A DNA stretch of 64,000 nucleotides from a virus (taxonomy: Duplodnaviria; Heunggongvirae; Uroviricota; Caudoviricetes), in the IMG/VR virus record IMGVR_UViG_3300026088_000011; one strand, 5' to 3'. Below are positions 2,256 to 40,900 of the stretch, one piece after another. Every line of letters begins with the position of its first letter. Position 1 is the stretch's first letter. Both the position numbers and the translations under genes were made by a program. Under the pieces are notes generated by a model. It was not told the origin of the DNA. It worked only from the letters and a program-made list of their open reading frames with translations, and did no database searches.

Positions 2256-2827
2256 TTGTGTACAAATAGTACTTTGTTTATTTTAATCATTTTCTCCCAA
2301 GGATATAGTTTTTTGATACTCTCAATATAATCCCCATCAGCAGCATAATTAGTGTTTAAAGGAATAGATTGGGCTATATCTCTTCTTATGCAGAAGGCTC
2401 CCATATCTATTTGTCCATGTGCAGGAACACATTTAAAATAAGCATAGTTAAAATGGCTATGCACCATATCCCAATATATTACTCCTGGTAATGAGTTAGA
2501 TGCTAATTTAACCTCTTTTACAAAATTAGGAGTGTAATAATTATCATCTCCTGTCATCAAAATATAATCAGCTTTACTAGTTTGTTTAACAATTTGTCTA
2601 GGTGTATGACCCCAATCATTATACCTCTTGTCTGTGATAATATAGTCAATTCTATCATCATAAAAGGAGTGTATAACATTCAGTAATTTAGCTCTAACTC
2701 CCTCTTCAGGATAATCTAATATCACTGTAGCCCTCCAATCTTCATCAGTTTGACAAATAAGAGAAGCTAAACTACTTCTAAGTTCATTTATACGATTATA
2801 GGTTGGAAGTAGGATTTCTAGAAACAT
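2252..2827 (-). CDS. Family 2 glycosyltransferase
   Basis: N-terminus ILLPTYNRINELRSSLASLICQT...ATVILDYPEEG matches the GT2 signature as I recall it (hhPxYN ... L.S...QT ... VhDD-like). Confidence 0.55.
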   Translation of the reverse strand: MFLEILLPTYNRINELRSSLASLICQTDEDWRATVILDYPEEGVRAKLLNVIHSFYDDRIDYIITDKRYNDWGHTPRQIVKQTSKADYILMTGDDNYYTPNFVKEVKLASNSLPGVIYWDMVHSHFNYAYFKCVPAHGQIDMGAFCIRRDIAQSIPLNTNYAADGDYIESIKKLYPWEKMIKINKVLFVHN

Positions 2828-3554
2828 AGTCTTTTAATAGTTTTGAATAATTTCTCTTCCAATTAGGTTTCAATATAATATCCCCTGTAGGTATAAGTTT
2901 CTGTATTCTAAGCTGTTCTATATGAGCACTGTGTCTTTGTATGATATTAGGTTTACCTTCTACATCAAATCCTGCTCCTGATTGATGATATATACCACCC
3001 CCACTTGGAAGGCTCCAGCGATAAAAGGCACTTTCTTCTCCTCTAGGAGGATTCCCATGTGTATATCCATGTATCTTATGAATACTATCTGCAAATGTAG
3101 TGTCTCCTCCCGCATTCATTATTGGACATTTTCCCACCTCTTCCCAAACTTTTTTACTATATACCATACCTGAATTCCCTATAAATACTAAAGATGTTAT
3201 TTCTGGTTCATTATAATACACTCCATTCCAATGTAATATACTACTCTCAGGAGTAAAATACTTCTTTATATTACTATTATGGTTGGACATATATACATCG
3301 TCATCATCCGTAACAGCTATAATATCTCCTTTACATTGCTCTATAGTAAAATTTTCTTTTTCTCCAATAGTCTTAAAAGGTTCCTTAATATTAAATATTC
3401 TTACTAAAGGATGATTGAATATAAGAGTTTGTTTAGGATAATCGTTAACAATGACACATTCACAGTCTGTTAAATCATCTTGATTTAAAAAAGAGAAAAG
3501 TGTCTCTTCTAATGTAGACACTCTTCCATAAGTTGTAATTTTCCAGCTTATCAT
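2796..3554 (-). CDS. Glycosyltransferase (GT2-like)
   Basis: N-terminus ITTYGRVSTLEETLFSFLNQ...CECVIVNDYP and a later DDDD acidic cluster; adjacent to the first glycosyltransferase. Confidence 0.45.
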   Translation of the reverse strand: MISWKITTYGRVSTLEETLFSFLNQDDLTDCECVIVNDYPKQTLIFNHPLVRIFNIKEPFKTIGEKENFTIEQCKGDIIAVTDDDDVYMSNHNSNIKKYFTPESSILHWNGVYYNEPEITSLVFIGNSGMVYSKKVWEEVGKCPIMNAGGDTTFADSIHKIHGYTHGNPPRGEESAFYRWSLPSGGGIYHQSGAGFDVEGKPNIIQRHSAHIEQLRIQKLIPTGDIILKPNWKRNYSKLLKDYVSRNPTSNL

Positions 3555-3555
3555 G

Positions 3556-3843
3556 CTACCAAATATGCATTATATCTAAACTATTAATACAAATAAGCTC
3601 TTTATCATCAATTTTTAAGACAGTTCCTCTCCTAAGAGCATTAGGGTCAGCAAATACTTCATCCCCTGGTTTTGCATTTACTGTAATTCCATGAATTCCT
3701 TCTCCTACAGCATACACTGTAAGTTTATCAAATTTACTCCTCATTTCTTCCTTTATTCCTTCCTCTGCTTCTCTTGAAAGCTTTATTTTAGATTCTGGTA
3801 GTTGAGGTAAAATTAAATATACTCTGTTACCTTGTATTCTCAT
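3556..3843 (-). CDS. groES: GroES-like co-chaperonin (Hsp10 / phage gp31-like)
   Basis: 95 aa; NRVYLILP...VYAVGEGI...KPGDEVFAD...KELICINSLDIMHI lines up with GroES (DRVxV ... AVGxG ... GDxVxF ... ESDILAI). Confidence 0.55.
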   Translation of the reverse strand: MRIQGNRVYLILPQLPESKIKLSREAEEGIKEEMRSKFDKLTVYAVGEGIHGITVNAKPGDEVFADPNALRRGTVLKIDDKELICINSLDIMHIW

Positions 3844-4418
3844 AATTCAATATTGGTTAATTTAAAATTTTTTAATTTATTATATACATTCTTATCTATT
3901 TTATCTTTAAATAACTCTGCTATCTGACTAATTTGTTTTTCTTTCATTTTTATATAAATTTTATTTGCTTCTTCTCTAGTATCAAAAGTGCCCAAAGGTG
4001 TTGTTTTTCTTAAATTTCCTATTTTGGCCTGATATTTTCCATTTTTTGTTTTACGTATACCTGTCAAATAAGTATGTTTTCTGATCGTACAACTACCTAT
4101 TATACTATTTATGGTTATAGGTACAAAACAACAAGTTTTAGGACTATATATTTTATTACCTTTTATTAATAAATCTTTATCTAAAGAATATCCTTCGATA
4201 TAATTATTATGAAACCATTGTGCAAATACTTGAAAATTTAACCATTCTTCACATACAAAACATCCTTCATATTTACAGTCTCTTTTTAAAGATTTTTTAC
4301 AATAACATCTCCTAAGCATACTTTTCCATACATCATAGACTTTTGTTTGTTTCCCATTTATTTTTGAATGATATATACCTTTACTGTAATATCCTTTATT
4401 ATAAATAAGTCTTTTCAT
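3840..4418 (-). CDS. Homing-endonuclease-like protein with C-terminal AP2-type DNA-binding domain
   Basis: YDVWKSMLRRCYCKKS...YEGCFVCEEWLNFQVFAQW is the phage HNH-associated motif (Y..W..M..RC ... C.eW..F..F..W). C-terminus TGIRKTKNGKYQAKIGNLRKTTPLGTFDTREEANKIY looks like an AP2 domain. Confidence 0.45.
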   Translation of the reverse strand: MKRLIYNKGYYSKGIYHSKINGKQTKVYDVWKSMLRRCYCKKSLKRDCKYEGCFVCEEWLNFQVFAQWFHNNYIEGYSLDKDLLIKGNKIYSPKTCCFVPITINSIIGSCTIRKHTYLTGIRKTKNGKYQAKIGNLRKTTPLGTFDTREEANKIYIKMKEKQISQIAELFKDKIDKNVYNKLKNFKLTNIEL

Positions 4419-5812: not shown

Positions 5813-6247
5813 TTAGAACTTTTTACCACCTTCTTTAATACGATTTTCTATTTTGTGGTCAGCTCTATGGGCATTGTAATGCATCTTTTCAACTACTGCT
5901 CCTCCTAAATCATATCCCCATCTACCAGCATAATCACAAATTCGTATAATACAATCGGCTAATTCTACTTCTGCCATTGGTCTATTAGGAAGATGAGTAT
6001 CCATAAGATTTTTACGTTCTCCTTCCATACATTCTGATATTTCACTAACCATTAACATAAGCATTTCTGCTCTATTTCTATCTTTCAATTGTCCCGTAGA
6101 TAGGTCTGTATGCCATCCAGCATCAAAGCTAGCCTTAAAACAAACTTCTACTAATTCATTTATATTTTGTTTCATATCTTGAATATTTATTACAAGTATA
6201 TCTCCTATATCTTTCATAGAATCTTCACTATTTAGTGTTACTTTCAT
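5813..6247 (-). CDS. MazG-like nucleoside triphosphate pyrophosphohydrolase domain protein
   Basis: EISECMEGERKN ... AEVELADCIIRICDYAG resembles the all-alpha NTP-PPase EExGE ... E.LGDvl pattern. Confidence 0.45.
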   Translation of the reverse strand: MKVTLNSEDSMKDIGDILVINIQDMKQNINELVEVCFKASFDAGWHTDLSTGQLKDRNRAEMLMLMVSEISECMEGERKNLMDTHLPNRPMAEVELADCIIRICDYAGRWGYDLGGAVVEKMHYNAHRADHKIENRIKEGGKKF

Positions 6248-7312: not shown

Positions 7313-7879
7313 TTAAATGTGATTCCATGCTTTTCTTACGATTATTCTGCTAACCATTACTTGTGTAATGTTATATTTTTTAGCTATATCCTTTTGTTTG
7401 GTTTTTAATTCTTTATATTCCTTTCTTATAGAAATAACATCCTCTTCACTAAGTCTAGCCATAGGATGGTTTATACCAATATAGTCGTTTATATTCTTTC
7501 TAAAATGTAGAATATTATCTTTAACAGAGCAATATTCCAAATTATCATCTTGATTATTTAACTTATTTGAATCTATATGATTTACTGTAGCTTCAGGATA
7601 GGGTTTTGGGCCTTTAAATGTTAAAATTATTAACTTATGAACTGTTGTTGGATGTTTCTTTCCATTTTTAGATAGATGCAGGAACCAATATCCTTTATGA
7701 TTTTTTGTTTGTTTCTTTATATTTTCAGGCATTTTTAAAAGAATAGCAGATTTATAATATCTTTTTAAACTTTTAATTCTACCTTTATTTGAAGCTTGAT
7801 ATAAACCTTCATATCCTGGAATATCTTTCCAGATTTCTCCTTCAATATCAATTAATGATAAATTTTCTGAATGAGACAT
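7313..7879 (-). CDS. HNH homing endonuclease (NUMOD4-like N-terminus plus HNH_3)
   Basis: EIWKDIPGYEGLYQASNKGRIKSL, then HKLIILTFKG...VNHIDSNKLNNQDDNLEY. Confidence 0.8.
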   Translation of the reverse strand: MSHSENLSLIDIEGEIWKDIPGYEGLYQASNKGRIKSLKRYYKSAILLKMPENIKKQTKNHKGYWFLHLSKNGKKHPTTVHKLIILTFKGPKPYPEATVNHIDSNKLNNQDDNLEYCSVKDNILHFRKNINDYIGINHPMARLSEEDVISIRKEYKELKTKQKDIAKKYNITQVMVSRIIVRKAWNHI

Positions 7880-10164: not shown

Positions 10165-10470
10165 TTATACTAATTCTTTTTGTGAGTGTTCTAATTGGTA
10201 AACAATCATCATACTATTACATGCTAATGCTACAAAATGACCAAATAATTGTTCATCTGAATAGTTATTACCTTGTATTTCTATAAAATGGCGTGTAATT
10301 GCTTGTTTTAATTCTTCTACGTTATTTCCATTTTTCCAATTAAATATAGGATATTTACCATTCTTATTTAAAGCCATTCTTTCAGCCATTTTCTTTACAA
10401 AATTCCAATCAATTTCATAAAATAACTTATCTTTTGTTTCCTTTATCTGGGTAACATTAAAATCACTCAT
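10165..10470 (-). CDS. hypothetical protein (possibly related to phage dATP/dGTP pyrophosphohydrolase N-terminal domains)
   Basis: 101 aa; weak recollection of an IDWNFV ... RHF ... GHFVALACNSMM pattern. Confidence 0.3.
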   Translation of the reverse strand: MSDFNVTQIKETKDKLFYEIDWNFVKKMAERMALNKNGKYPIFNWKNGNNVEELKQAITRHFIEIQGNNYSDEQLFGHFVALACNSMMIVYQLEHSQKELV

Positions 10471-11620: not shown

Positions 11621-12706
11621 TTATCCTTTTATGTTTACAAACCCTCCATTCTCATAATTCTTTTTTGAAATGTTCCATTTGTCATTCTCTTTAGCCCATT
11701 TCAATTCTTCTATAATACTCTTCACACCAGGATATTTCCTACCTTTATATTCAAAACCATTGTAGGCATCATCCATATCATCACTGTTAAGTGTATATAT
11801 CAATGGAGCATAATATCCAATACTGTCACATACAATGAATTTAGGACACTCTATGGTATAATATTCTAATCCTTCTCTTTCTTTTAATTCTGTACATGCT
11901 TCCATATATAGATAGGCTTGGATGTAACTTCTCCTAAAGAGGTAATATTCGGTGTAGAAACCCTCCACACTAAATGTACACTTTAAATCATAGCATGAGA
12001 TTGTCTTTTTCTTATGATCTATGATTAATTTATCCATCATTCCTTTAAGTTTCAATCCATCTATTTCAAAATCTTCAATTTGAAATTGATTATATACACT
12101 ATATCTATCACTATTTACTAGATTTATAATAGGAGCAGTAAATTCATTAGATTTCAAATCCTCTACAATTCTCTCAGAATTCTGTACATCTTGTAGTGTA
12201 ATAATAGTAAGTCCTTTAGATTTTACTTCTCTCATTTCCTTATATAGTAATTCTGGGTCTTTCCCTATAAATTTATCTAATATAACAGGGAGTTTCCAAT
12301 CAAATTGAGCTATTATTCTGGCTTCTGTAGCCATATCCTCAAAGCTTTTATTTACATTACCAGCTTCATCTGTATTTGCAATAGTAATGTCTACTAAAGC
12401 ATTAACAAAATCAGCCATTTTTCCTGTTAAAGGTTTAGCTGTAGAACTAAGATAGAATTTAGCATCAAATTTCTCAGGTTCAAATAATAGTAAATCAACT
12501 AAGGAGCCAATTTTTGATGCTTGGTTGGATTCTTCTTCTATTCTTTCATTTAAAAAATATTTTTTATAATATTTACGTCTATCTAATGAAAATTCTTTCA
12601 AACTGGATGACGAATCCAAATTTATCATTCTATACTGCTTTTCCGATTTAATATTCCCGTTTATCATTTTATTTATTTTTGTATTTCCATTTATATCCAT
12701 AAGCAT
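11621..12706 (-). CDS. hypothetical protein
   Basis: 361-aa ORF; no motif assigned. Confidence 0.45.
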   Translation of the reverse strand: MLMDINGNTKINKMINGNIKSEKQYRMINLDSSSSLKEFSLDRRKYYKKYFLNERIEEESNQASKIGSLVDLLLFEPEKFDAKFYLSSTAKPLTGKMADFVNALVDITIANTDEAGNVNKSFEDMATEARIIAQFDWKLPVILDKFIGKDPELLYKEMREVKSKGLTIITLQDVQNSERIVEDLKSNEFTAPIINLVNSDRYSVYNQFQIEDFEIDGLKLKGMMDKLIIDHKKKTISCYDLKCTFSVEGFYTEYYLFRRSYIQAYLYMEACTELKEREGLEYYTIECPKFIVCDSIGYYAPLIYTLNSDDMDDAYNGFEYKGRKYPGVKSIIEELKWAKENDKWNISKKNYENGGFVNIKG

Positions 12707-13439
12707 AATTTCTTCTACCTTTACAACATGCTATAATATTAGGATTTCCACCTATTTTATTTAATTCTTTTTCAGCTTCTTTTACACTTAAGAATTCCTT
12801 TATTTCATTTCCATCCATATCACATTGTATTATTTCTACAGTATCTCCAGATACTATTCTATTTAATAAAGTATTAGGATTATAGTCCTTTTTTAACATA
12901 AATCTATATCCTTGACAACTTTTTCTTATTCCTTTTGTAACTTTAGAAATTGCAGTACTTATAGTATTTAATTCTTTTGCTGCCTCAAGTGTATTCCTAA
13001 ACTCCTTGACAAAACTACCGTCTAAATTTAGCATCACTATATTAATATTATGAATAGGATGAGCTTTAAATTTTTCTTTGGTTTTAACTGACCATTTTTT
13101 ACCCATACTAGATATAGACATCCTTTTTTTAGTTTCCTCTGAAGCTTTACCTTTGCTTCCAGGCTCTCTAATATTTAACATCTTATATCCTACAAATTTG
13201 TACCATTTCCACCAATAGATCTCATAGAAATTTAAAACATCTTGAGTAATAGTATTTGGAAATTCTAAAATAATCTCAAATTTATGATTTTTTATACCAT
13301 ATTTCGAAAAAGATCTATACAGTAATCTTTGAAATTTGCTACCTCCACTAGAATATTTGGAGTATCTTTGTTTCCAATTCCAAGTTTGTCCTATATAAAT
13401 CTTTCCAGAAGGAGAGATTATTCTATAAATTACTATCAT
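12669..13439 (-). CDS. GIY-YIG homing endonuclease with NUMOD-like C-terminal repeats
   Basis: VIYRIISPSGKIYIGQT (GIY...YIG), then three repeated ...LNxxGxxIKEFxSxxEAxKELN... modules. Confidence 0.8.
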   Translation of the reverse strand: MIVIYRIISPSGKIYIGQTWNWKQRYSKYSSGGSKFQRLLYRSFSKYGIKNHKFEIILEFPNTITQDVLNFYEIYWWKWYKFVGYKMLNIREPGSKGKASEETKKRMSISSMGKKWSVKTKEKFKAHPIHNINIVMLNLDGSFVKEFRNTLEAAKELNTISTAISKVTKGIRKSCQGYRFMLKKDYNPNTLLNRIVSGDTVEIIQCDMDGNEIKEFLSVKEAEKELNKIGGNPNIIACCKGRRNYAYGYKWKYKNK

Positions 13440-14062: not shown

Positions 14063-14268
14063 ATTTCTACATTTACATTTCTTTCATAAAAATTCTTACA
14101 CATATCTCGCATATCCAACTTATAATGTCTCCATTCATCAAATTCACTATCTGGAGGTATAATTAGATGGTCTAATAAATACTCAAACAGCTCTAATGTT
14201 GTAAAATCATTAAATACTAGCTCGTTCATCTTTTTCTTTTTTAGTTTTCCTATCGTGACATTCATCAT
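14059..14268 (-). CDS. hypothetical protein
   Basis: 69-aa ORF; overlaps the next gene's C-terminus, so the start is uncertain. Confidence 0.3.
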   Translation of the reverse strand: MMNVTIGKLKKKKMNELVFNDFTTLELFEYLLDHLIIPPDSEFDEWRHYKLDMRDMCKNFYERNVNVEI

Positions 14269-14656
14269 GTAAACACTGCAAATTGTCTATTTCACAGAAT
14301 AAAGTTTTGACAAAATGAGGTAGATCAGAATAATCTTTTAAACTTCCCAATGGATGTACATGATCTACAGAAATCCTTTTATCAGGAAAGTAATTTCCAC
14401 ATTCTGCACATTTATATTCCCATTTTTGACGCTTCACTGGTCCCTTATATGGTCTTCTAGCTGCATTTTTACATGCTAATATAGGTTTCCACCACCTGCT
14501 TTTCTGTCTCAATGCAGATCGTATAAATGACCAAAAACCACTAACACTCATTGTTCCATGATTAAATGGTTTCTCCACCTTACTTTTTCTCTTCTTAGGA
14601 GCCTTTATTTTCTTTTGTTTCTTACTCATGTACAAATTTAATAAAAAATTGGACAT
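14210..14656 (-). CDS. HNH nuclease domain protein
   Basis: CAECGNYFPDKRISVDHVHPLGSL...LQCLHDECHDRKT gives the C..C ... DH..P ... CH spacing; basic N-terminal tail. Confidence 0.5.
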   Translation of the reverse strand: MSNFLLNLYMSKKQKKIKAPKKRKSKVEKPFNHGTMSVSGFWSFIRSALRQKSRWWKPILACKNAARRPYKGPVKRQKWEYKCAECGNYFPDKRISVDHVHPLGSLKDYSDLPHFVKTLFCEIDNLQCLHDECHDRKTKKEKDERASI

Positions 14657-14986: not shown

Positions 14987-15185
14987 AAGGCATAAAACAA
15001 CCTGAATGATACTTTAAATGGTATTTATTACCTTTAGAGTCTTTAAACCTCCAATCATCATTTATAGTATTTACATATTTGAATTTTAGACCTTTTGAAT
15101 TATTAATCATACAAGGCCAAATAACTAATCCTTCATCATTTAACCTTTTTAAAGTTTGATTACTGGTTATTTGTATTTCTTTCAT
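14958..15185 (-). CDS. hypothetical protein
   Basis: 75-aa ORF. Confidence 0.35.
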   Translation of the reverse strand: MKEIQITSNQTLKRLNDEGLVIWPCMINNSKGLKFKYVNTINDDWRFKDSKGNKYHLKYHSGCFMPYVYQIYEKD

Positions 15186-15916
15186 ACTAATTCAGGAATT
15201 TCATTTACGAAGAATTTATGAGCTTCTATATGATTTTGCATCCATAGAGAAGGATGAATTTCTCTCATTGACTGGGTTGTATATTGATATAGCTCGTAAA
15301 GGCTATATGGACAATTATAGTCGAATTCTGGGTGTTTTAGTTGATTTTTGATGATATTTAACTGTGTGGAAGTAATAAATTCGTCTTCTATAAACATTCT
15401 ACCTATTAATTCTGCTCTAGTTTTATCAGAAAGTTCAATTTTCTTCATTTCTTCTCTTTCTTTTACCATTTGAGTGAATATTTCTCCAGAGTTCTTGATA
15501 TATTCTGTAATCGCTGTAGGTGTGAAAGATTGAATTTCTCCTTGATGTTTCTTTTTAAATGTTCCCATATCTCCTCTAACACATCCATTTTTACAAATAA
15601 ATACATGTGTTCCTATAGCAAATTTAAGACTTAAGGACTTATCATAGCTATTTTGGAATGCTATTTGTATTTGCATTTCCTTATCTGCTACATTTCTAAG
15701 CTTAAATAATCCATTTGCTACATTTCCTTCCCTGGCAGATGTATAGGATTCTCCACTTAATGTAAATCCTGCTCCTTGTATAGAATTCAATGTTAAATCT
15801 ATTAATTGTTCATGTGTAATAGGTCTATAGGTTCTTGTTTCACGTGGAACAATTGTGTTTATAAGTTGTTGTTTTGTACTAATATATGTATTTTGTTGTT
15901 TTTCTAATGTTTCCAT
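15182..15916 (-). CDS. hypothetical protein, possibly DUF932-like (phage/plasmid-associated)
   Basis: 244 aa; a weak recollection of the DUF932 family only. Confidence 0.3.
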   Translation of the reverse strand: METLEKQQNTYISTKQQLINTIVPRETRTYRPITHEQLIDLTLNSIQGAGFTLSGESYTSAREGNVANGLFKLRNVADKEMQIQIAFQNSYDKSLSLKFAIGTHVFICKNGCVRGDMGTFKKKHQGEIQSFTPTAITEYIKNSGEIFTQMVKEREEMKKIELSDKTRAELIGRMFIEDEFITSTQLNIIKNQLKHPEFDYNCPYSLYELYQYTTQSMREIHPSLWMQNHIEAHKFFVNEIPELV

Positions 15917-15924
15917 AATTTTTG

Positions 15925-16557
15925 TTATTTATAGTTTTTTAATATTAATTCTCCTTCTTCTTTACATTCATTTTCTCCATAAAATCCCCAACAACTATCT
16001 TCTACTGTTTCTTCAGTATTTCCACAACATTTACATTTGATGGATTTCACTATTTCATACCCCCAAACATCCCCAGATAAGAACTTATTCCATGTTTCTA
16101 TTAATCCTTCAGCATAGTTTTCAGCTTCTTCTTCATTATTTTCAAAATTCTTACCAGAAGGATTGAAAGTTTTCCTAACTAGAATATATCCAGTTGTACT
16201 TACATCCCATTTTCTATCAGGGTAGTCTTTGGTATTAGATAATGATAAATTAATCCCTGAATGAATATAAGCATCTACTCCAAATATCCAATATTTATCG
16301 TATTCAGGATTTAAATCTTCAGAGTATTCTTCTACTGTACTTTTACCATTCAAGGTAATTTCAGACTTTTCTATTTGTCTTTTAGCTTCTAAATGAGTAA
16401 ATATAGAATGAGGATCAAAATTCTCCCTTTTAACATTAAATTGTCTATGATCATATACTAAAAATATATCATTATTTTCCCATCTATCAGGAGATTCTGA
16501 AAACTCATCCTGAATTATATTTAATGTATATTCTACATTTTTATTTTCTAATATCAT
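15925..16557 (-). CDS. hypothetical protein with C-terminal Cys cluster
   Basis: 210 aa; C-terminus has CKCCGNTEETVEDSCWGFYGENEC. Confidence 0.4.
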   Translation of the reverse strand: MILENKNVEYTLNIIQDEFSESPDRWENNDIFLVYDHRQFNVKRENFDPHSIFTHLEAKRQIEKSEITLNGKSTVEEYSEDLNPEYDKYWIFGVDAYIHSGINLSLSNTKDYPDRKWDVSTTGYILVRKTFNPSGKNFENNEEEAENYAEGLIETWNKFLSGDVWGYEIVKSIKCKCCGNTEETVEDSCWGFYGENECKEEGELILKNYK

Positions 16558-16781
16558 ATTTTCTTAAGTTTTAGAACAGAACTTTCTACCAAATAACCAA
16601 GATTATAGCTACTTTCAACTTCTGCATTTTTAATAGCATCATCTAAAGCCTTATTATACATTAATTGACCATATTCCTCCATACACTTTACAATTTTAGG
16701 ATAGAGGTATTTATCATATACATGATGTTTTGTTTCTGGAGTTATGTTATAACTCTTTAATATTTCTTCTTTCTCTTTCAT
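16554..16781 (-). CDS. hypothetical protein, paralog of the next gene
   Basis: 75 aa; shares KEEILK...MEEYG...ALEEAA.NA...SILKLKK with 16778-17032. Confidence 0.4.
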   Translation of the reverse strand: MKEKEEILKSYNITPETKHHVYDKYLYPKIVKCMEEYGQLMYNKALDDAIKNAEVESSYNLGYLVESSVLKLKKI

Positions 16782-17032
16782 GTTTTCTTTAATTTTAGTA
16801 TGGAATCTTTTATTACATATACTTCTATAGTATCTTCATCATCCCCGCTCCAATGAGGAAGTCTGTTATAATCAGCATCTGCGTTATTAGCAGCCTCTTC
16901 TAGAGCTAAATTCCATTGAATTTTCCCATATTCTTCCATTACTTCCAAAATGCAATCTGCTTCAGATGTATCATTTTTGTACCAATTTTCAAAAACGATA
17001 CCTTTATCTTTCAATATTTCTTCTTTTGTCAT
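16778..17032 (-). CDS. hypothetical protein, paralog of the previous gene (start placed at the internal Met, MTKEEILK)
   Basis: Tandem duplicate of 16554-16781. Confidence 0.4.
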   Translation of the reverse strand: MTKEEILKDKGIVFENWYKNDTSEADCILEVMEEYGKIQWNLALEEAANNADADYNRLPHWSGDDEDTIEVYVIKDSILKLKKT

Positions 17033-17042
17033 GATTATTGTA

Positions 17043-17771
17043 TTAAAAAGGTAAATCATCAATTTTTTGAAGCCAGTTTATCTCTACCCTATTATTATCT
17101 TTTACTATCTTTGAAACCTTAGAAAATACTCCATTTGTTTCCATTTCTTGTGAAATACGTGCAAAATAGCTAGGATGTTTAAGAAAAAATGTATGCGTAA
17201 AAGGAGTAACATATTTTTGTAATTTGGCCGCTTCTGAGCCTAAAAATATAATAGGTATTCCTGTGTATCCTACTACTTCCTCTAATAAGTATTTCATAAA
17301 TGGGTTCCATAAATCTACCATATTTCCAGCTTTATCTTTTGAAGTAGTTAGAGCAGCATTTACTAATAGTATTTTCTCATCTCTAGCTAAATATGTCAAA
17401 TCTGGATTTTTTATTCTATCTAAAGCTAATCCTTTATATACATCTTGTTCTATTGCATTGAGTAAAGTAGATAAACTAGGCTGCATTTTACCTGTTATAC
17501 TACAACTTAAGGCTAAACCATCACAAATACTTGCTCCATTTATAAATGTATGATATGGACATAGACCAATCATTATTGCCCTACATTCATCCAAAGGAGT
17601 TTCTTTAAAGGCTCTCCATGTAAGCATGGAATTTGGTGCAATTTGTATACCTCTCCTTGCCTCTTTCTTCAAAAAAGCATAAATTTCATCACATTCTTTA
17701 CTTTCCACAAACTTTTGCATTTTAGGATGATAGGATTCATGGAAATAATCTTTAAATTTATTCCATTCCAT
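17043..17771 (-). CDS. Uracil-DNA glycosylase family-1 homolog with a divergent active-site motif
   Basis: All family-1 blocks align in order: IMIGLCPYH (vs VILGQDPYH), GLALSCS (GLAFSV), QPSLSTLL (PPSL), ILLVNAALT (LLLNTVLT), IIFLGSEAAK (FLLWGSHAQK), LKHPSYFA (LKAPHPSPLS). The catalytic Asp of GQDPYH is Cys here. Confidence 0.7.
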   Translation of the reverse strand: MEWNKFKDYFHESYHPKMQKFVESKECDEIYAFLKKEARRGIQIAPNSMLTWRAFKETPLDECRAIMIGLCPYHTFINGASICDGLALSCSITGKMQPSLSTLLNAIEQDVYKGLALDRIKNPDLTYLARDEKILLVNAALTTSKDKAGNMVDLWNPFMKYLLEEVVGYTGIPIIFLGSEAAKLQKYVTPFTHTFFLKHPSYFARISQEMETNGVFSKVSKIVKDNNRVEINWLQKIDDLPF

Positions 17772-17985: not shown

Positions 17986-18329
17986 GTGTATTTTATATTT
18001 TTCATTATAAACTCATCAAATTCTTCAAATGGGACATTTATTCTGTAATAGTCTTTTCCATCCATCCTAAGTGTAGTTATCCCTATCTCTCCAGAAGGAT
18101 TATAACTATTTATCTTAGAAAGTCTAAATCTAAAAGGAGCAGGCTCCATATCTTCTAATTTATTTTCTGGTTCAGGAAGCCCCATTTCCTCATATTTAGG
18201 AATATTATCCTTTTCAAACATTGCTTCTGTTATAACAAAATCTCCTTTTAATTCTATCATAGTAAGTTTTTTTCTTTTAATTCTTTCTCTATTGTTTGAA
18301 TTCCGTACACCTTTCCTAATAGTGCCCAA
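17982..18329 (-). CDS. hypothetical protein
   Basis: 115-aa ORF; partly overlaps the primase-like gene. Confidence 0.35.
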   Translation of the reverse strand: MGTIRKGVRNSNNRERIKRKKLTMIELKGDFVITEAMFEKDNIPKYEEMGLPEPENKLEDMEPAPFRFRLSKINSYNPSGEIGITTLRMDGKDYYRINVPFEEFDEFIMKNIKYT

Positions 18330-19288
18330 TCCTTGATACCTTCTTGTAGATATTTCCTAGGAACATTACAATAATCGAAGTTGAATAATTTAGTAATTTG
18401 TTGACTATTCTGCACTCCTGTTATATCACTATCGAATGATAGAATTTGCTTTTCAGAATTAGCTTTTAAATATGCTACATTTTCTTCAGAAAAACAAGCA
18501 ATTCCCTCATTCTGAACAGCACAACTACATGGAAATACTTTCTTAATCATCATGTGGTCCTTCTTTGACTTATTCACAAAAGCCACCTTACAATTTTTAA
18601 TATCATTTTTCCCATCCATTGTTGTAATAGGAACATTGTTAGGCATCCATTTGCTCTTTTTATCAGCAAAAGGTCTGTAAATCTTCCAGAATCCATTATA
18701 ATAATAACCAAACCTTAAATCAGTATCTTTAAGAGGAAATTTAGATTTATTGAAATATAACGTTTTTATGCTATAAATGGAATTATCACGTAAATCCGTG
18801 ATATTCTGATGATAGGTATTCCAATAGGCTAATTCCTCTAATGTGAACTTTCTTGTAATCACTTGAATCAAGCTATTTCTTTTGGTTATTTCTGGTTGTT
18901 TATATTGAGAAGTAATAGATTTATAATCCCCTTGTACACCATTACTGATTCCAAGCTGGAAGTCCACATCTATTTTTCTAAGAATATCATCTAATGTGGA
19001 AAGCATAAATAACTGTTTTACGAAGGTGAAACAGTCTCCTCTAAAAGATGTATCACCAAAATCAATATATGAAATATACCCTAATTTACTCCCTATAAGG
19101 AATGAACTATTTTTATCTGTCCTAAATGGACTATGTGTAATTTCATTCAATTTCCAATCCTTTGTAGGCATATAATAGGAAAATATAGAGAATTCGCTAA
19201 CTTTCTCTAATATACTATCCATAGATAGTCTTTGCTTAACTCTACCTTTTATCATATTATTTATAATAATACCTGTAAATGTATACAA
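18257..19288 (-). CDS. DnaG-like (Toprim) DNA primase with a cysteine-less zinc-finger-like N-terminus; start may be an internal Met
   Basis: HSPFRTDKNSSFLIG...YISYIDFGDTSFRGDCFTFVKQL parallels the DnaG zinc-finger block (CPFH.EKTPSF ... CFGCG ... GD..FV) with the Cys residues replaced. ILSFDSDITG gives a Toprim-like DxD. Confidence 0.4.
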   Translation of the reverse strand: MYTFTGIIINNMIKGRVKQRLSMDSILEKVSEFSIFSYYMPTKDWKLNEITHSPFRTDKNSSFLIGSKLGYISYIDFGDTSFRGDCFTFVKQLFMLSTLDDILRKIDVDFQLGISNGVQGDYKSITSQYKQPEITKRNSLIQVITRKFTLEELAYWNTYHQNITDLRDNSIYSIKTLYFNKSKFPLKDTDLRFGYYYNGFWKIYRPFADKKSKWMPNNVPITTMDGKNDIKNCKVAFVNKSKKDHMMIKKVFPCSCAVQNEGIACFSEENVAYLKANSEKQILSFDSDITGVQNSQQITKLFNFDYCNVPRKYLQEGIKDWALLGKVYGIQTIEKELKEKNLL

Positions 19289-19488: not shown

Positions 19489-20379
19489 CTAATAAGAAGC
19501 ATCGTCTTCTTGAATAACTTTATCTCCAGTTACAATGAAATCTTCTGGTTTAAATTCCTTCAAATCTTTAAGCACGTGGCTGTTTTTAGAGCCATATTCT
19601 CCTTTAACATTTAACACAAATCTTTCATGAGGTTTTAGATCCTTATTAGCTTTCTTTTTAAGAGCCTCTATTACTTCAGTTTTATCATAATCTACTAATC
19701 TAAATTGCTTTAAAGCGTAAGAAGCTAGAAAAGCTTTATTATAAATAGATTGATAATTTTTAGTTTCTCCTTCTTTATCTACAGATTTTACTTCATATAC
19801 AGGTACAAATGTTCCACTGTACTCCCCGTTAATCTGGCTCCTAATATCCTTCAAGTTCCCTTTCATTAATTGTTTCCACTCTAACTGAAGAGTAGTTTCC
19901 GCATCTTTATAATCTAGCTTACTTAACCAACTTCTTAGAAAGTTATAAAAATCTTCTTCACCTACATTAGCTACTCTATAATCTCTCTTAACAAACCAAT
20001 CTGGCAGGTTATTAGGATCATCACTCCAAGAGCAATTACCTAAAGTATTAATATACTGTTTTTTAGTACCTTCTTTATTTTCTTTAGGTTTATCCTCTAG
20101 AAAATAGGTAATTTTGTCCTTTTTACCAGTTTTAACATTTTCTACCCAAACATCAATTCTTACATTAGTATTCCCTTCTTTGGATTCCCCAATATATTCT
20201 GTAGCCCTACTATCCTCTTTCAATTCGATTCCTAGGATCTCTTTATACTCTTCAATAGAAGGATTAATAGCAATTACCTTGACTTCAGCCAATCCTACAT
20301 AAAGTTGATTGTTAAATTCTTGATTAATTCTGATTTTTCCTCCAATTCCTGACTTTACTTCATTCTTTGTCTCTTCCAT
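19489..20379 (-). CDS. hypothetical protein; speculative single-stranded DNA-binding protein
   Basis: 296 aa, acidic C-terminal tail (...IQEDDASY), sits between the primase-like and replication genes; no sequence motif confirmed. Confidence 0.25.
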   Translation of the reverse strand: MEETKNEVKSGIGGKIRINQEFNNQLYVGLAEVKVIAINPSIEEYKEILGIELKEDSRATEYIGESKEGNTNVRIDVWVENVKTGKKDKITYFLEDKPKENKEGTKKQYINTLGNCSWSDDPNNLPDWFVKRDYRVANVGEEDFYNFLRSWLSKLDYKDAETTLQLEWKQLMKGNLKDIRSQINGEYSGTFVPVYEVKSVDKEGETKNYQSIYNKAFLASYALKQFRLVDYDKTEVIEALKKKANKDLKPHERFVLNVKGEYGSKNSHVLKDLKEFKPEDFIVTGDKVIQEDDASY

Positions 20380-24664: not shown

Positions 24665-24960
24665 ACAATAGGATTTTTACTCATTATTTCTTTAACTATT
24701 TTCTGTACTTCTTCTCTAGCTAATTGTTGTACATAGGAAGCTTTTCCCCAAGATCCATTGTCTAGTTGGGCTTTCACAGTTTTCATAACTTCTTCTTTCA
24801 GGATTTTGTCAGGATCTGCATCTGGAACTTTTTGGACTAATATTTCCTTAAGAATTCCTATGATTTCTTCTCTAGCAATTGACCTAACTTGACCTTTTAT
24901 AGCATCTTTAATTGCTAATCTTAATTCTTTATCTTCTTCTATATTTAATTTTACTATCAT
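24661..24960 (-). CDS. hypothetical protein
   Basis: 99-aa ORF. Confidence 0.35.
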   Translation of the reverse strand: MIVKLNIEEDKELRLAIKDAIKGQVRSIAREEIIGILKEILVQKVPDADPDKILKEEVMKTVKAQLDNGSWGKASYVQQLAREEVQKIVKEIMSKNPIV

Positions 24961-26120
24961 ATATATTTTATTTTATTACTATCTAACATTGAGAGAGATT
25001 CTTTTATCTTTTTGATTTCTGGAGGTTCCTTTATAGCTAGAATATGAATATTAGCTACTTTTCCAGTGTAGTCTAATTGTAGACTTCTAGATATGGATTG
25101 AGCACTATTTTCAGCATTGTATGTGAAGTTAAGTAGAATAACACTATCTAATGATTTATAGGTTAATCCTGTCTTCCCTTTTTCAACTAGTGCTAAGTGA
25201 TTAATTTCTCCTCTTTGAAATTTCTGTAAATTCTCATCATTTTCAGACTTACTATGATATGAAGGAATTCCTATACCGTCTGCTACATCTGCTAATCCTG
25301 TAAAAATAATACATCTTTTACCTTGTAATTGAAATAGTAGTTTCTTTAAGAAATTCATTTTTCCTATAGAGGATAATGATAATCTATTTCTAGAGAGAGC
25401 TAAATGCATGAAATTCTGACCTTTATATTTCATTTGTTGAATTACAAAGCTTAAATTGTCATATTTTTGCTTCTCTGTAAGCATTTTACCCTTCTTATTA
25501 GGAGTTTTAATACTATTATCTAAATCTACTAAATGAACAGTTATTTGATAATCTGCAATTATCTTATCCTTAATAGCACTACTGAGAGAATATTTAGCTA
25601 TTTCTTTCAGTCCCCACTTACCCTCTGTTTCTTTACTAATAGTTCCTGACAATCCCAATACAAGAGTATTTTCATCATTTGTCATTATTTGATGACAATA
25701 ATCTCTTTCTCCATCTGAAGTAGAGTGCATTTCATCAATAATAATAAAGTCAAATATTTTGTCCTTATATTTATGTAAAGAACTAAAGTTACAAAAGGTT
25801 ATATTAGGATTAAAATAACTCCATTTAATCATTTCTCTTTCCCAATTCCCAATTAGGGAATTTTCAGGATATGCTAGAAGAATAGTACAATCATATGAAT
25901 ATAAGGATTTAGCTATTTTAATTGCCAAAAGGCTTTTACCCACACGCATTCCTACATTTAGGAAACCAAATCTTTCTTTCTTATAGAAATCTATAGATTT
26001 AGCTAGAAGTTCATCTTGTATATCATCTTGTGTCATTTGTTTACATTTAGGATATATACATAAGTTGTTCAATGTACAACTTTCTCCTTCTCTTTTTATT
26101 CCATTTTTAGAACAAATCAT
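24957..26120 (-). CDS. Superfamily-2 (DEAH-type) helicase
   Basis: GMRVGKS (motif I), FIIIDEMH (motif II, DEAH-like), LSGT (motif III), later QRGE...VEKGKTGL. Confidence 0.6.
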   Translation of the reverse strand: MICSKNGIKREGESCTLNNLCIYPKCKQMTQDDIQDELLAKSIDFYKKERFGFLNVGMRVGKSLLAIKIAKSLYSYDCTILLAYPENSLIGNWEREMIKWSYFNPNITFCNFSSLHKYKDKIFDFIIIDEMHSTSDGERDYCHQIMTNDENTLVLGLSGTISKETEGKWGLKEIAKYSLSSAIKDKIIADYQITVHLVDLDNSIKTPNKKGKMLTEKQKYDNLSFVIQQMKYKGQNFMHLALSRNRLSLSSIGKMNFLKKLLFQLQGKRCIIFTGLADVADGIGIPSYHSKSENDENLQKFQRGEINHLALVEKGKTGLTYKSLDSVILLNFTYNAENSAQSISRSLQLDYTGKVANIHILAIKEPPEIKKIKESLSMLDSNKIKYI

Positions 26121-29357: not shown

Positions 29358-29558
29358 TTAAAATTTTAAATGTTCTGAGTAATTTAGTATATTCTTAATT
29401 TTACTCCAATTTATAGTATAATGATAAGTATCAGCTCTCCAGTATTTCCAGAATTTTAGTAATTTCTTCCTTTTATGTTTAGGAAAGAGTCTATTTATTT
29501 TTCTTCTTCTAGGTTTTGGATTTCTAGCCATAAGGTTATATTTAAAATTGGAACCCAA
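29358..29558 (-). CDS. hypothetical basic protein
   Basis: 66-aa ORF. Confidence 0.3.
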   Translation of the reverse strand: MGSNFKYNLMARNPKPRRRKINRLFPKHKRKKLLKFWKYWRADTYHYTINWSKIKNILNYSEHLKF

Positions 29559-31566
29559 GCTGGTTAATTGGTTGCTTCTTCACTGCTTTTCTTCCTTCCA
29601 GTTGGATTTTTGTTATAATCTCCTGACATTTCCCTATATAAAAATCATAATTTATATTACAATCTTCTACTTTTGTTGTTTTAGGGAGGAAATTACATAC
29701 TACACAAGAATACCCTTTTCCTTCTTCTTTTTTTTCTACAATAGATACATCAGGGGCATTTGTTGTACATTCTGGATTTTTTATTTTAAATAAAGATTCC
29801 CCTGACTCAGAAACATAATATCTAATGAGCTTTCTATATACATTAGTACCTTTTTTAGACACCCCTTCATAGTGGAAATCCTTACTACTTTTTACTCTAG
29901 AACAAAAATCGTAGATATTCTTATGATTTCTTATAGTCTCATCTATAGAGATATTGTTAGTAAAATACTGTTCTAAGGCTTTTGCTATTATTACTTTTGA
30001 TTTTTTCTCTCTTAATTCGAAATCTGTCTTAAATTCAGCTCCTTTTTTCTTAATAAAGTCTCCTTTATTATCAGCTATTTTCCTTTTGGCTATATATCCA
30101 CTAACAGATGTTTGTGCAATCCATTCAAATTCTGTATATTCTACATTTCCCAATTCTTTATTACCTATTAATTCCTCATAATAAGATATTATTTCCTTGA
30201 ATTCCTTTTCTCTAGATTTATCTATTAAAGCATCCCAGCCATCGGTATTCGCGCTTACTATATTATAATCTTTAAGAATAAGAGCTTCAATTATCATTAA
30301 TATCTCTAATTGGCACCCCATAGTTACTTTTAACATAGCACATGGATCTTGTTGCCAATCTCCTTGTGTATTAAGTCTACCATAAGCTCCTCCATTTAGG
30401 GATAATTTGCCCATTTCTTGTAGGGATTCATATTTAGGATCTTTTGTATCTTTTGCTAACTTTTTGTACTTTAACCTTCTTTCAATCTTACTTACAAGCA
30501 TATTATTCCATTCTATTCCTAAATGGGATGGGTAAATTTTATACTTTCTTATTGCATTGGGATATTGTGAACCTATATCACATTGTAGATATAATTGGTT
30601 TTCTGTAGGTTTTATATATCTAGGTTTCTCATTAGAATGTATACCTCCTCTCATTACAGTGACAGTTAAATCCTTATTAAACCTATACTTAAACTGTTGT
30701 TCTTCATTTTTAATAAATGTCTCACCTAGCTCTTTTACAAATTGTTGTAATTCTTTAGTTTGGAATTTCACTGTGTTAGGAAAAAACACTTTATACTTCT
30801 TCCCAAAGAAATTACTAACCTTTTTAGGTTTTAATTCTTTTTCATTTTTTCCTGTTAGTTTACAATAATCTAACTGATTCCACATCGCTCCTATCTTAAC
30901 ATCATCAAAATTCAAGCAATTTAAGCCTGTTTCTTCTTGTATAATAAGTCTATCTTTTATCTTGTTTTTACCTTTATATAAAGGATTATCTGTTTCTCCT
31001 ATAGTATACAAATATAACTCATAACTAGACATTATATCATTAAAACAGTAATCTTTAATTAGTTGTATTTCCTCTTTGGTTAAGTCTTTTTTTAGATGAT
31101 GTATTGGCATCTCTTCCACATTATACCAGTTTGTAGCATATTGTATTGCTTTTAAAGATACCCTTTGTACATTTTTACCCTCTCTTAATAGATGCCAGAT
31201 TAAAGGCAGATCTAATTGTTTTAAAGTTAAATCATACTCTCTATATCTGGAAAATAGCCCATAATTAGAATTATCTATATTATCATTAGATTCTTGAGAT
31301 ATTAAAGCACATATTTCTAATCCTGTTAAATCATGCCAATTTTGATAGTTTCTTAAAACCCATTCGATTATTTGACCGTCATATTTAAGATTATTATATC
31401 CTGTCCAATAGTAATCTTTATGAGTTTCAGTAAATTTAATAAACCCATCCAATGTATTTTCCCATTGATTTACTCCAAATTCATACCTTTTATCCTCTTC
31501 AGGGATATAGATTCCCACAAAGAAGCATTCTAAGAGAGCTTCTATATCCCAGATGAGTATTTTCAT
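29542..31566 (-). CDS. Family B DNA polymerase (compact, with 3'-5' exonuclease domain)
   Basis: Exo I ILIWDIEA, Exo II YNNLKYDGQII, Pol motif A CDIGSQYPNAI (DxxSLYPS), motif B KLSLNGGAYG (Kx3NSxYG), motif C region SANTDGWDAL (unusual NTDG in place of DTDS/DTDG). Confidence 0.65.
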   Translation of the reverse strand: MKILIWDIEALLECFFVGIYIPEEDKRYEFGVNQWENTLDGFIKFTETHKDYYWTGYNNLKYDGQIIEWVLRNYQNWHDLTGLEICALISQESNDNIDNSNYGLFSRYREYDLTLKQLDLPLIWHLLREGKNVQRVSLKAIQYATNWYNVEEMPIHHLKKDLTKEEIQLIKDYCFNDIMSSYELYLYTIGETDNPLYKGKNKIKDRLIIQEETGLNCLNFDDVKIGAMWNQLDYCKLTGKNEKELKPKKVSNFFGKKYKVFFPNTVKFQTKELQQFVKELGETFIKNEEQQFKYRFNKDLTVTVMRGGIHSNEKPRYIKPTENQLYLQCDIGSQYPNAIRKYKIYPSHLGIEWNNMLVSKIERRLKYKKLAKDTKDPKYESLQEMGKLSLNGGAYGRLNTQGDWQQDPCAMLKVTMGCQLEILMIIEALILKDYNIVSANTDGWDALIDKSREKEFKEIISYYEELIGNKELGNVEYTEFEWIAQTSVSGYIAKRKIADNKGDFIKKKGAEFKTDFELREKKSKVIIAKALEQYFTNNISIDETIRNHKNIYDFCSRVKSSKDFHYEGVSKKGTNVYRKLIRYYVSESGESLFKIKNPECTTNAPDVSIVEKKEEGKGYSCVVCNFLPKTTKVEDCNINYDFYIGKCQEIITKIQLEGRKAVKKQPINQLGFQF

Positions 31567-37976: not shown

Positions 37977-40900
37977 TTAAATTGTTAATAAAATTGGTTT
38001 ACTTTTCTTTACACTAATTACTACTTCTTTTTCTGTGTTTTTGAGTGTTACAGAAGCACTTTTCTTTAATTTGATGTTTGTCACTTCGCTATCTATTGTA
38101 ATAGATGGTTTTTTCTCAATAGGATTACTATATATAATTCTTGAGAAATCCTTCATTTCTCCCATAGAAATTTTACCATAATTATTAGGATATTCTACTA
38201 TTTCAGCCCATGAATTTGTAGCTTTACAGTAAACATTCCAACTTCCTATTATCCACCAATCATTGTCAGATTTTTCATTATATAATGTGCATTCTTTTTC
38301 TTGTTTATAGATTGATTTACTAACACCTTCTACTTGTGTAATAGGTTTAAATTTACAACCCACTGGGAATCTCTTTTTAGCTTCAATCAAAAAACTCTCT
38401 TTTTCTGACATCTTAGAAACAAGTTCTATATGCTCAAAATATACACCATTTCCTGATTTAGGCCATGCTATATCTTCTGAAATTCTATCTATATGGAACT
38501 CCATTCCTTTTACCCACCCTGATGATGTTTTACCATCTTTCTTTTTATCAGTATCACCTATACATCTTACTTTATCTCCTATTTTGAATTTTTCCATAGT
38601 TTTAATAGGTAATTTGTCTATATGTCCTTCAGGAAGGTATTGTTGGATTTCACTGATAGAGATTTCCTTAATAGGGGTTATTTCTGATGGTACATAAGCA
38701 CCCTGTTTATAAAATGTAGAGTTTTGAATATAATCTCCCCATATAAGAGATGGATCAATTTTTTCGATTTTGATTGTTCTTTTTTCTCTATTGCTATAAC
38801 ATTCGCACTCATACCACTTCCCTATAACAAATTTACTTTCTTCTTTATTAGGAGGAATAAAACCTATAGGCATTAGTTCCCATGAAATACCTGTAGTGAC
38901 ATTATTATAATTCCAACTCCAGACTTTATTTAAGAATGTCCCTGATCCAGTAGTTGGAGAATCTATTCTGGTAATCAATAAATAGTCTCCTTTTTTCATA
39001 GTTCCTATACTTTGAGGACCATCTTTTAGAGCTTTTAAATATCTTCCTACAAGATTTTCTTCTTTCTTTTCCATAGATTTCCCTATTTTTTTATAGAATT
39101 CTTCTGGTGTAAGAACTTTTCCCCAAGGAATATTACTACTAGGAGCATAGTCTTTTAAACCCTTTTCTCCATAATACTTTTGTCCTCCGCACCAATTATT
39201 TCTATGTTTTTTATTCAAGAATTCTCTAACATCATGACTAAGTGAAGGATTACCTTCTACAAGAACACACCAATCTTCATTTTTAGGCTCCATAGATGAT
39301 GAATTAGGTATTTCATGGGGAAGTGCTTTTCTATAGACATCAAAAAAATACTCTCTACCTATCCAACTAGGAGTGCTATTTCTATCTTTGGAAAAAATCT
39401 GATCTCCATTTATACTAGTTATAATAGTAGGATTTTCCTTAATAGATAGATATTTACCTTCTTTATCCCATATCCAATCCCCTACTTGAGGTATCCATTG
39501 TTCTTCTTTCATAGGAAAATTCTCTTTTTTAGCTGGAATTTCTTGTAAATTAGCTATTTCTTTCAAATTAATAGCAATATTCTGTCTACTCCCTCCATCT
39601 AAATAAGCTTCTCTCGATTCTACAATGTTTATTCCTATAATAGCATCATATAATTCTATAGTTTTATTATTCCATGTCCATGTAAACCTGTAATTCTTCC
39701 CATTTTCTAATTTTGTTTCCATAGGTTTATTTTCTAATTTAGATGCCCAAATTCCTTTTCCTATAGGTACATAAAGTCTCCATTGATTATCATATAATAT
39801 TTCTCCATCTCCATCTATTTTGAAGTCTTGATTGAATATTTCTATAATTTTATCATAATTAGAACTACTGTCTGCATATAATTGATAGAATTTAGTACCA
39901 ATGGAAAATAACTTTTTAGTTTCTTGTAATAATATAGATTCTGTAGATTTCAGAGCTTGCTTTTTAGGAATGAATTTATTAGCCTTAATACAGCATTCTA
40001 ACCACTGGATTTCATCAGAATTAGCTTTTCTATCTCCTTCTCTTAGAAAACATCCTCCTCCTTTAGAAAACCCTGTATTACATGTTGTAGAAGTTCCTGT
40101 AAAGTGGTATTCACTATCTGTAGTGCCCCATTTATGAATATTTCCATTATCTGCTACATAATATTCTCCTTCAATTTTTACATCATTTTTAGGTCTTTCC
40201 TCAGGAAAATATTTGAAAACTTCTTCCATATTAGCAGGTTTTAAGTCAATCCAGCTTTTCTTACCTGCAAATCCATCCCAGTTTCCTGTTTGAGGGAAAT
40301 TATTATGGTTTATGTATTTATCTACTTTAAAATAATTGCCTTTATTTCCTAAATAATGAAATACATGTCTATTACCCCCATATAAACCCTCATACCAGTT
40401 TCCTTCAATAAGCTCTAATTCCTTAGATTTTACAGGTTTTGGAACAAATTTTCCTTTTTTAATACATAATTCCATCCATTCTATTTCATCTTCTGTAGAA
40501 GGAACAAATTTGTTATAAATATTACCTTTTATACTTTGGTCTTTAAAGAATACATCTACCATAGGATTAAGATAATAACAAGTTGTTTCATTTTTTATTT
40601 TGAAAATTTGCCACCTTTTATTAATATTATCTTCTAGAGTAGTATAACATTTTCCTACTTCCCAATTTATCACCTTATCAATATGACCATCTGGGAGATA
40701 TTGCTGAATTTCTTCTAAATCTTTCATAGGTTCAGCATATTTCCACCAATCACTATTATCCACATCAAGATTTAATCCAACCTGATTACCTAAACTTTTA
40801 GCCAAATGAATAGTATCAGCTTTTAACTTATTATTCATAAGAATCAAAGGTTTCATATATCTCCCTCCATGAATCTTATACCATTTTCCTATTGCAAGAT

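Follow-up and report, generated by a model that had tools for sequence, protein, structure and literature searches.

A family-1 uracil-DNA glycosylase homolog of a crAss-like phage replication module, with cysteine at the catalytic aspartate position and a C-terminal tip resembling that of SSB

Family-1 uracil-DNA glycosylases (UDGs) are textbook enzymes with an invariant Asp/His catalytic pair. What, then, is the function of a family-1 homolog in which the catalytic aspartate is a cysteine? The question is raised by an open reading frame (ORF) at positions 17043–17771 of a 64,000-nucleotide stretch of viral DNA (IMG/VR record IMGVR_UViG_3300026088_000011, Caudoviricetes), the whole of which is called "the window" here. 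The ORF is on the minus strand, starts with ATG, has its stop codon at 17043–17045 and encodes a protein of 242 residues, the query of the analyses below. This protein is a derived family-1 UDG from the replication module of a crAss-like (Crassvirales-related) phage, and it is probably a uracil reader tethered to the replication fork, not an ordinary repair enzyme.

The ORF encodes a family-1 UDG homolog by sequence, profile and fold. A phmmer search against all PDB sequences matches uracil-DNA glycosylases only, the best one being Coxiella Ung (3tr7, E = 6e-12), and a profile built from 120 relatives reaches E = 1.3e-27 against the PDB. The comparison with E. coli Ung by hhalign gives a probability of 99.3%. 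The AlphaFold model, built on the alignment of the relatives, has a mean predicted local distance difference test (pLDDT) of 95.3 and a predicted template-modelling score of 0.91; its top Foldseek matches in the PDB are all family-1 UNGs (template-modelling scores of 0.7–0.84, probability 1.0). The query is nevertheless under the thresholds of the family databases: it has no match to Pfam PF03167 at E ≤ 1, and it scores 92 bits with the NCBIfam Ung equivalog, whose cutoff is 162. With the NCBIfam Ung models the Cys forms score 92–118 bits, compared to about 163 for the Asp-bearing phage forms, which fits with shifted constraints.

The cysteine is part of motif A, G69-L-C71-P-Y73-H74 (17550–17567, minus strand, as for all the features described below), which phmmer, hhalign and the family profile place on the GQDPYH water-activating loop. 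In the phmmer alignment, "miGLCPYH" of the query falls on "ilGQDPYH" of 3tr7, and hhalign gives the same register. The codons are GGT CTA TGT CCA TAT CAT, Cys71 being encoded by the TGT at 17559–17561. According to these three independent alignments, Cys71 replaces Asp64 of the E. coli enzyme (Asp145 of the human one) and Leu70 replaces Gln63. An earlier note on this DNA, made from the letters and their translations, had described both substitutions, and the alignments bear it out on both residues.

The same note stated that all the conserved blocks of the family are present in order. Their order is indeed that of family 1 (DGLALSC, QPSL, LLVNAALT, FLGS, KHPSYFAR), but two of the blocks are altered. 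The DGLALSC strand (17502–17522, HGLAFSV in E. coli) has Leu88 where E. coli has the uracil-stacking Phe77, a position which is Met in 88, Phe in 18 and Leu in 14 of 120 close relatives; it also contains Cys90, which is present clade-wide and aligns with E. coli Val79. In motif B, H199-P-S-Y-F-A-R (17157–17177, HPSPLSA in Ung), the Leu-wedge loop HPSPLS has become HPSYFAR in the query and HPASAAY in the family, with Phe or Ala at the position of the leucine and Arg or Tyr two residues further. In addition, the loop after PYH is longer by 4 residues. The fold (template-modelling scores of 0.73–0.84), the order of the motifs, the Tyr gate, the Asn, the His of motif B and the Pro-Ser and Gly-Ser phosphate loops are common to the query and to E. 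coli Ung, human UNG and Coxiella 3tr7. QPSL (17472–17483, the Pro-rich loop PPSL) contains Ser99, the phosphate-pinching serine, LLVNAALT contains the uracil-specificity residue Asn138 (17358–17360, Asn123 in E. coli and Asn204 in the human enzyme), and His199 is the equivalent of E. coli His187. The tyrosine of motif A, here Tyr73, is the gate that excludes 5-substituted pyrimidines, and the equivalent of Asn138 reads the Watson–Crick edge of uracil.

For human UNG (hUNG), Asp145 has been described as the residue that activates the catalytic water, "with possible assistance from His148", and the D145E variant is severely impaired (PMC8730318). Since His148, the equivalent of His74, has been proposed to assist Asp145, positions 71 and 74 both line the water site, and a Cys-His (or Ser-His) pair is therefore a credible replacement. 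The earlier note had also considered that a conserved aspartate located elsewhere might take the catalytic position. The alignment gives no sign of this: Asp84 and Asp28 are invariant, but they are equally present in the relatives that bear Asp71, and hence are not a relocation specific to the Cys forms.

The cysteine at the Asp64 position is a trait of the family, neither a sequencing error nor a frameshift. A search of metagenome proteins yielded 179 relatives; the close family of the query, as used here, consists of the best 120 of these, at 48–70% identity. Position 71 is Cys in 110 of these 120 proteins (about 92%), Ser in 7 and Asp in 3. Pro72, Tyr73, Asn138, His199, Asp84-Gly85, Gln97-Pro98, Trp155 and Gly178 are invariant (120/120), and His74 is kept in 117. 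Across 80 IMG/VR loci, the codon of Cys71 is TGT in 56 and TGC in 20; the use of both codons means that the amino acid is held while the codon drifts, and on this comparison Cys71 is under selection. Asp (GAY) and Cys (TGY) differ by two base changes, which implies that an intermediate that was neither Asp nor Cys was once tolerated; the Ala, Gly and Ser variants that do occur at this position in the clade are possible intermediates. Together with its two nearest relatives, the query makes up a small sub-branch in which Met takes the place of His151 and Trp210, two near-invariant residues of the family, and "QG", which precedes the LLxN strand, is replaced by "DEK".

In the wider clade, residue 71 is labile. 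An exhaustive profile search yielded 9,829 cluster representatives at E ≤ 1e-3 and 391 (clusters at 50% identity) at E ≤ 1e-30, and hundreds of IMG/VR contigs carry members of the clade, which is large and environmentally widespread. Among the best 150 representatives, residue 71 is D, C, S, E, N, A, G, P, T, K or V, and Asn138, His199, QPS, Trp155 and Gly178 are mostly kept. The pairing of residues 71 and 74 was counted over 324 pooled sequences. Cys71 is paired with His74 in 187 of 190 cases and Ser71 with His in 17 of 30, compared to 4 of 63 for Asp71, which is found with Pro74 in 42 of 63. Of the 190 Cys forms, 188 have the complete pocket triad Tyr73/Asn138/His199. About 25 representatives have no pocket at all, but retain the N-terminal helices and the C-terminus. 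One of these (P0130) has GPPPSY at motif A, His instead of Asn138 and Asp instead of His199, and it occupies the same gene slot, after the primase, as the Asp-bearing P0018.

The query also carries an acidic C-terminal tail ending in Pro-Phe, which is an addition to the family-1 fold. [quoted passage not shown] The C-terminal consensus of bacterial SSB, D-D-D-I/L-P-F, is a hub peptide which recruits fork proteins, among them Ung (PMC3000357). Judged by its residues, the IDDLPF tip resembles a docking peptide of the SSB C-terminal type, a likeness that extends to the acidic linker of variable length seen in the family. Unlike the tip of SSB, that of the query is borne by a UDG fold, not by a tetramer of oligonucleotide/oligosaccharide-binding folds (OB-folds), and the linker is mostly of about 5 residues. 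Pro-Phe is found at the very end of 86 of the 120 family members and of 69 of the 150 cluster representatives, and the last six residues give the logo [D/L][E/D][D/E][L/V/P]-P-F. The stretch from Trp233 to Pro-Phe is 4 to 45 residues long and enriched 2.5-fold in acidic residues. Whatever residue 71 is, forms with the tail occur (among the Asp forms, 18 of 55), and 18 of 25 representatives devoid of the pocket have retained it. Its persistence thus equals or exceeds that of the active site.

As the earlier note had stated, the gene is part of a replication block. Its neighbors there include the genes of a primase and a PolB-like polymerase, together with those of an SNF2 helicase and an AAA_24 ATPase. 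The DNA primase (phrog_12622, 18257–19288) is just upstream of the UDG-like gene, in the same orientation, and is present in 83 of 88 sequences (87 related loci and the window). It is preceded by p296 (19489–20379), a probable phage SSB with an OB-fold and a conserved acidic tail ending in Tyr or Phe, by the SNF2-type helicase (24957–26120), and by the PolB-like DNA polymerase (phrog_1252, 29542–31566), which has the motifs DIGSQYPNA, KLSLNGGAYG and NTDG. The flanks of the 87 related loci were surveyed over ±10 kb. Upstream, the order is PolB (−9.6 kb), SNF2 (−4.8 kb), p296 (−3.0 kb), primase (−1.8 kb) and the UDG-like gene, and it is kept over 80+ loci with all genes on one strand. Downstream, on this same strand, are found rIIA-like (+1.9 kb), rIIB (+4 kb), PD-(D/E)XK nuclease (+6 kb), ribonucleotide reductase (RNR, +9 kb) and RecA (+10 kb). 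There is no second, canonical UDG in the 64 kb of the window, nor within ±10 kb at the 87 related loci.

We tentatively favor, with slightly less than even confidence, the view that the protein is a replisome-tethered uracil-recognition module whose chemistry is attenuated or re-engineered, a Cys-His pair having taken the place of Asp. The nucleotide-flipping scaffold and the pocket (the Tyr73 gate, the Asn138 reader and His199, which contacts O2 and the leaving group) are kept, which suggests that the protein still recognizes extrahelical uracil. The acidic IDDLPF tip would hold it at the fork in the manner of an SSB tail. Its partner would probably belong to the phage replisome (PolB, the primase or p296, which is SSB-like); a client of the host SSB is another possibility. 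The tethered protein would scan nascent or template DNA for uracil, and the pocket would bind the flipped-out base. Cleavage of the glycosidic bond would be slow or altered, with the water positioned by Cys71 and His74 in much the way that Asn positions it in MUG and SMUG1. Selection would then be for fork-coupled sensing and handling of uracil, plus a structural role, rather than for bulk repair. The clade may record an evolutionary series in which a canonical phage UDG gained the tail, the Asp was relaxed or replaced, and the pocket was lost in some lineages. Such a series would imply that the gene is maintained by a non-catalytic role, as is the case for poxvirus D4 (PMC1936997, PMC2630940).

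The earlier note had suggested a catalytically altered, uracil-binding replication factor, with the poxvirus UDG as precedent. Four results support this suggestion: the lability of the Asp position, the existence of pocket-less orthologs in the same slot, the persistence of the SSB-like tail and the strict gene order. The inactivity that it implied is no more than an inference; other UDG families work with another residue at this position, and here the cysteine is conserved jointly with His74.

Several points weigh against a tethered reader with altered chemistry. The Cys-His pair might serve perfectly well as a general base, in which case the enzyme would be an ordinary one, and the geometry of Cys71, His74 and His199 is deduced from the alignment and from the literature. 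The Pro-Phe end is missing in 34 of the 120 family members, which may be due to truncated gene calls or to real variation. The tail is short (median of 7 residues after Trp233) and may pack on the domain instead of docking in trans. Finally, the conservation counts are not phylogenetically independent, and the neighbor-joining tree of the 150 representatives is star-like, and thus does not resolve the number of independent Asp to Cys events.

The alternative which survives best, possible but in our opinion rather unlikely, is that the protein is an ordinary and fully competent UDG, devoted to normal uracil repair, in which the Cys71 thiolate and His74 replace Asp as the group that activates water and stabilizes the oxocarbenium. 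The residues of the pocket and those that pinch the DNA (Tyr73, Asn138, His199, Ser99 and Gly178) are invariant, the cysteine is strictly conserved jointly with His74, and Ser and Asp are found as alternatives inside the same close family. In other UDG families, active enzymes have Asn, Ala or Glu where family 1 has the Asp of motif A. The presence of dUTPase or ThyX in relatives also indicates that avoiding uracil matters to these phages. However, even the D145E change is severely detrimental in hUNG (PMC8730318), and the query has an altered stacking Phe and Leu wedge and scores well under the Ung equivalog thresholds. Moreover, residue 71 is highly variable in the clade (Ala, Gly and Pro included) and syntenic orthologs are devoid of the pocket; this suggests that catalysis is not what holds the gene in place.

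An improbable alternative is that the protein is a purely structural subunit of the replisome, a pseudo-enzyme whose UDG fold would do no more than bind DNA or act as a bridge, in the manner of poxvirus D4 with A20 and E9, and for which uracil recognition is irrelevant. The pocket-less orthologs, whose slot is the same and whose N-terminal helices and Pro-Phe tail are retained, are consistent with this idea, as are the conserved synteny of the replication module and the precedent of a catalysis-independent role in poxviruses (PMC1936997, PMC2630940). On the other hand, in the query's close family Tyr73, Asn138 and His199 are conserved at 100%, and Cys71 and His74 at 92–98%, when the overall identity is about 50%, which is unexpected if the pocket has no function, and poxvirus D4 itself retains its catalytic residues.

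It is doubtful, and we would give it little chance, that the Cys71-His74 dyad was reinvented after the loss of Asp, possibly with Cys90, to carry out a chemistry unknown in family-1 UDGs, the SSB-tail mimic delivering the protein to the replisome. In one variant, uracil or abasic sites at the fork would be capped by a covalent thio-glycosyl or abasic (AP)-site adduct, by analogy with UdgX and HMCES; in another, the protein would be a metal- or redox-controlled glycosylase. The stricter form of this idea, in which Cys71 is a nucleophile that attacks C1′ or the aldehyde of the AP site (as in UdgX and HMCES), or in which Cys71, His74 and Cys90 form a metal or redox center, is less likely still. 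The association of Cys or Ser with His is the classic pattern of a nucleophile dyad, the cysteine is conserved after the loss of Asp, and Cys90 lies on the DGLxxxC strand, which we take to be next to the strand that ends at residue 71 in the UNG fold. But there is no precedent in family 1, and there is no dedicated cluster of cysteines: a site made of Cys27, Cys71 and Cys90, binding a metal or an Fe-S cluster, was considered and rejected, since Cys27 alternates with Phe, Met and Leu, and Cys90 is present whatever residue 71 is.

That the motif results from a sequencing error or a frameshift at the LCPYH codons, as the earlier note had considered, or from the decay of a pseudogene, has practically no chance of being correct. 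The two departures of the query from the family consensus (H151M and W210M) might lend this idea some weight, but the ORF is intact, the structure model is of high confidence, independent assemblies carry the same protein, and the Cys motif, written with either Cys codon, occurs in more than 100 relatives and in 76 of 80 IMG/VR loci.

The earlier note had also envisaged that the protein might be a way to tolerate uracil or modified pyrimidines in the phage DNA. This idea finds no support: Tyr73, which forms the gate, is invariant, and some of the related phages carry ThyX or a trimeric dUTPase, which argues against a genome containing deoxyuridine. A deoxyuridine-containing or hypermodified genome was rejected on these grounds, and because no gene supports it; two family-2 glycosyltransferases of the window are not linked to DNA. 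Neither a trimeric dUTPase nor ThyX was found in the 64 kb of the window. The two overlapping glycosyltransferase ORFs (2252–2827 and 2796–3554) are at the distal end of the block of replication and nucleotide-metabolism genes. A homolog of the second is found in 4 of the 87 loci and none of the first (0/87), in a search of ±10-kb flanks which, in the window, would include neither gene.

Regarding known systems, the closest annotated relatives of the query are the UDGs of Crassvirales, cultured or from the human gut (crAss001, DAC15/17, PhiCrAssBcn and cr108_1), which are 25–30% identical to it. They have in common with the query an origin in crAss-like phages and a motif B of the HPAY(Y/F)AR type; unlike the query, they have GQDPYP, with the Asp, a short loop and no xPF tail. 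No close homolog of the protein was found in the cultured phages of the collection, all matches being under 31% identity, and its own clade is known from metagenomes only. MUG/TDG (family 2) and SMUG1 (family 3) are slow-turnover glycosylases which bind their product tightly. Both have an Asn, a non-acidic residue, at the water-activating position and therefore offer a functional analogy for the Cys and Ser variants. They belong to other families, with the motifs GINPG and GMNPG, whereas the query is clearly family 1 by sequence and fold.

Poxvirus D4/E4 is a viral family-1-like UDG and an essential component of the replisome, in which its role is independent of catalysis (PMC1936997, PMC2630940). 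It differs from the query in that it retains the catalytic Asp and His and is tethered by A20 instead of a C-terminal peptide. The query family matches D4/E4 weakly and in the C-terminal half only (E about 1e-4, far under the cellular Ungs), and no A20 homolog was found, none having been sought. For membership of a D4-type holoenzyme, the query offers its synteny with the primase, the SSB-like protein and PolB, and a tail which appears to be of the docking type.

The window has a GC content of 30%. No near-identical phage was found in GenBank, and the nearest relatives of the terminase are found in Leptolyngbya and Cellulophaga phages. Besides the genes already described, the surroundings of the ORF include an AAA_24 ATPase, RNR, RecA, a PD-(D/E)XK nuclease, MazG-like pyrophosphatases and several homing endonucleases. 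The pyrophosphatases are a MazG-like protein with the N-domain of dATP/dGTP diphosphohydrolase and a second "pyrophosphatase" (phrog_5658), at 10165–10470 and 5813–6247. In most relatives (L005–L087), a DUF932 gene precedes the UDG-like gene and a pair consisting of rIIA-like (HATPase_c) and rIIB follows it. In the window, unlike in most relatives, DUF932 is downstream of the UDG-like gene (region 15182–17043), and no rIIA or rIIB homolog was found in the 64 kb. A 1003-residue ORF (37977–40988) has no Pfam or PHROG match.

At least four genes resembling homing endonucleases (GIY-YIG/NUMOD and HNH) are scattered among the replication genes of the window, at 12669–13439, 3840–4418, 14210–14656 and 7313–7879. 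In the relatives such genes are at other positions, and in one case (P0141) a GIY-YIG domain is fused, or read through, to the UDG-like gene. Another protein, P0135 (metagenomic, 385 residues), has a NADAR domain N-terminal to a Ser-variant (GLSPYH) UDG-like domain, which may point to a link with the reversal of DNA ADP-ribosylation or may be a fusion made by gene calling. Both fusions were set aside as clues to function, each being a single representative and a possible read-through gene call. In cr108_1 (Steigviridae), genes annotated as COOH-NH2 ligase and glutamine amidotransferase (1–2980) precede the Asp-bearing UDG. Genes of these two types often go with the hypermodification of DNA bases.

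The literature search returned no description of a family-1 UDG with Cys in place of Asp, nor of a UDG with an SSB-like tip. In this clade, the residue at the Asp position has changed on many occasions, and Cys became fixed along with His in one sub-clade; the result is a natural series, from enzyme to altered enzyme to pocket-less scaffold, in a single genomic slot. To our knowledge, poxvirus D4 is the sole known example of a repair enzyme turned into a replisome component, and the series could show how such a conversion takes place. It could also show whether a thiol can substitute for the carboxylate in the hydrolysis of the glycosidic bond, and how phages reuse the docking code of the SSB tail. 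For crAss-like phages in general, the annotation "uracil-DNA glycosylase" should not be taken as evidence of activity.
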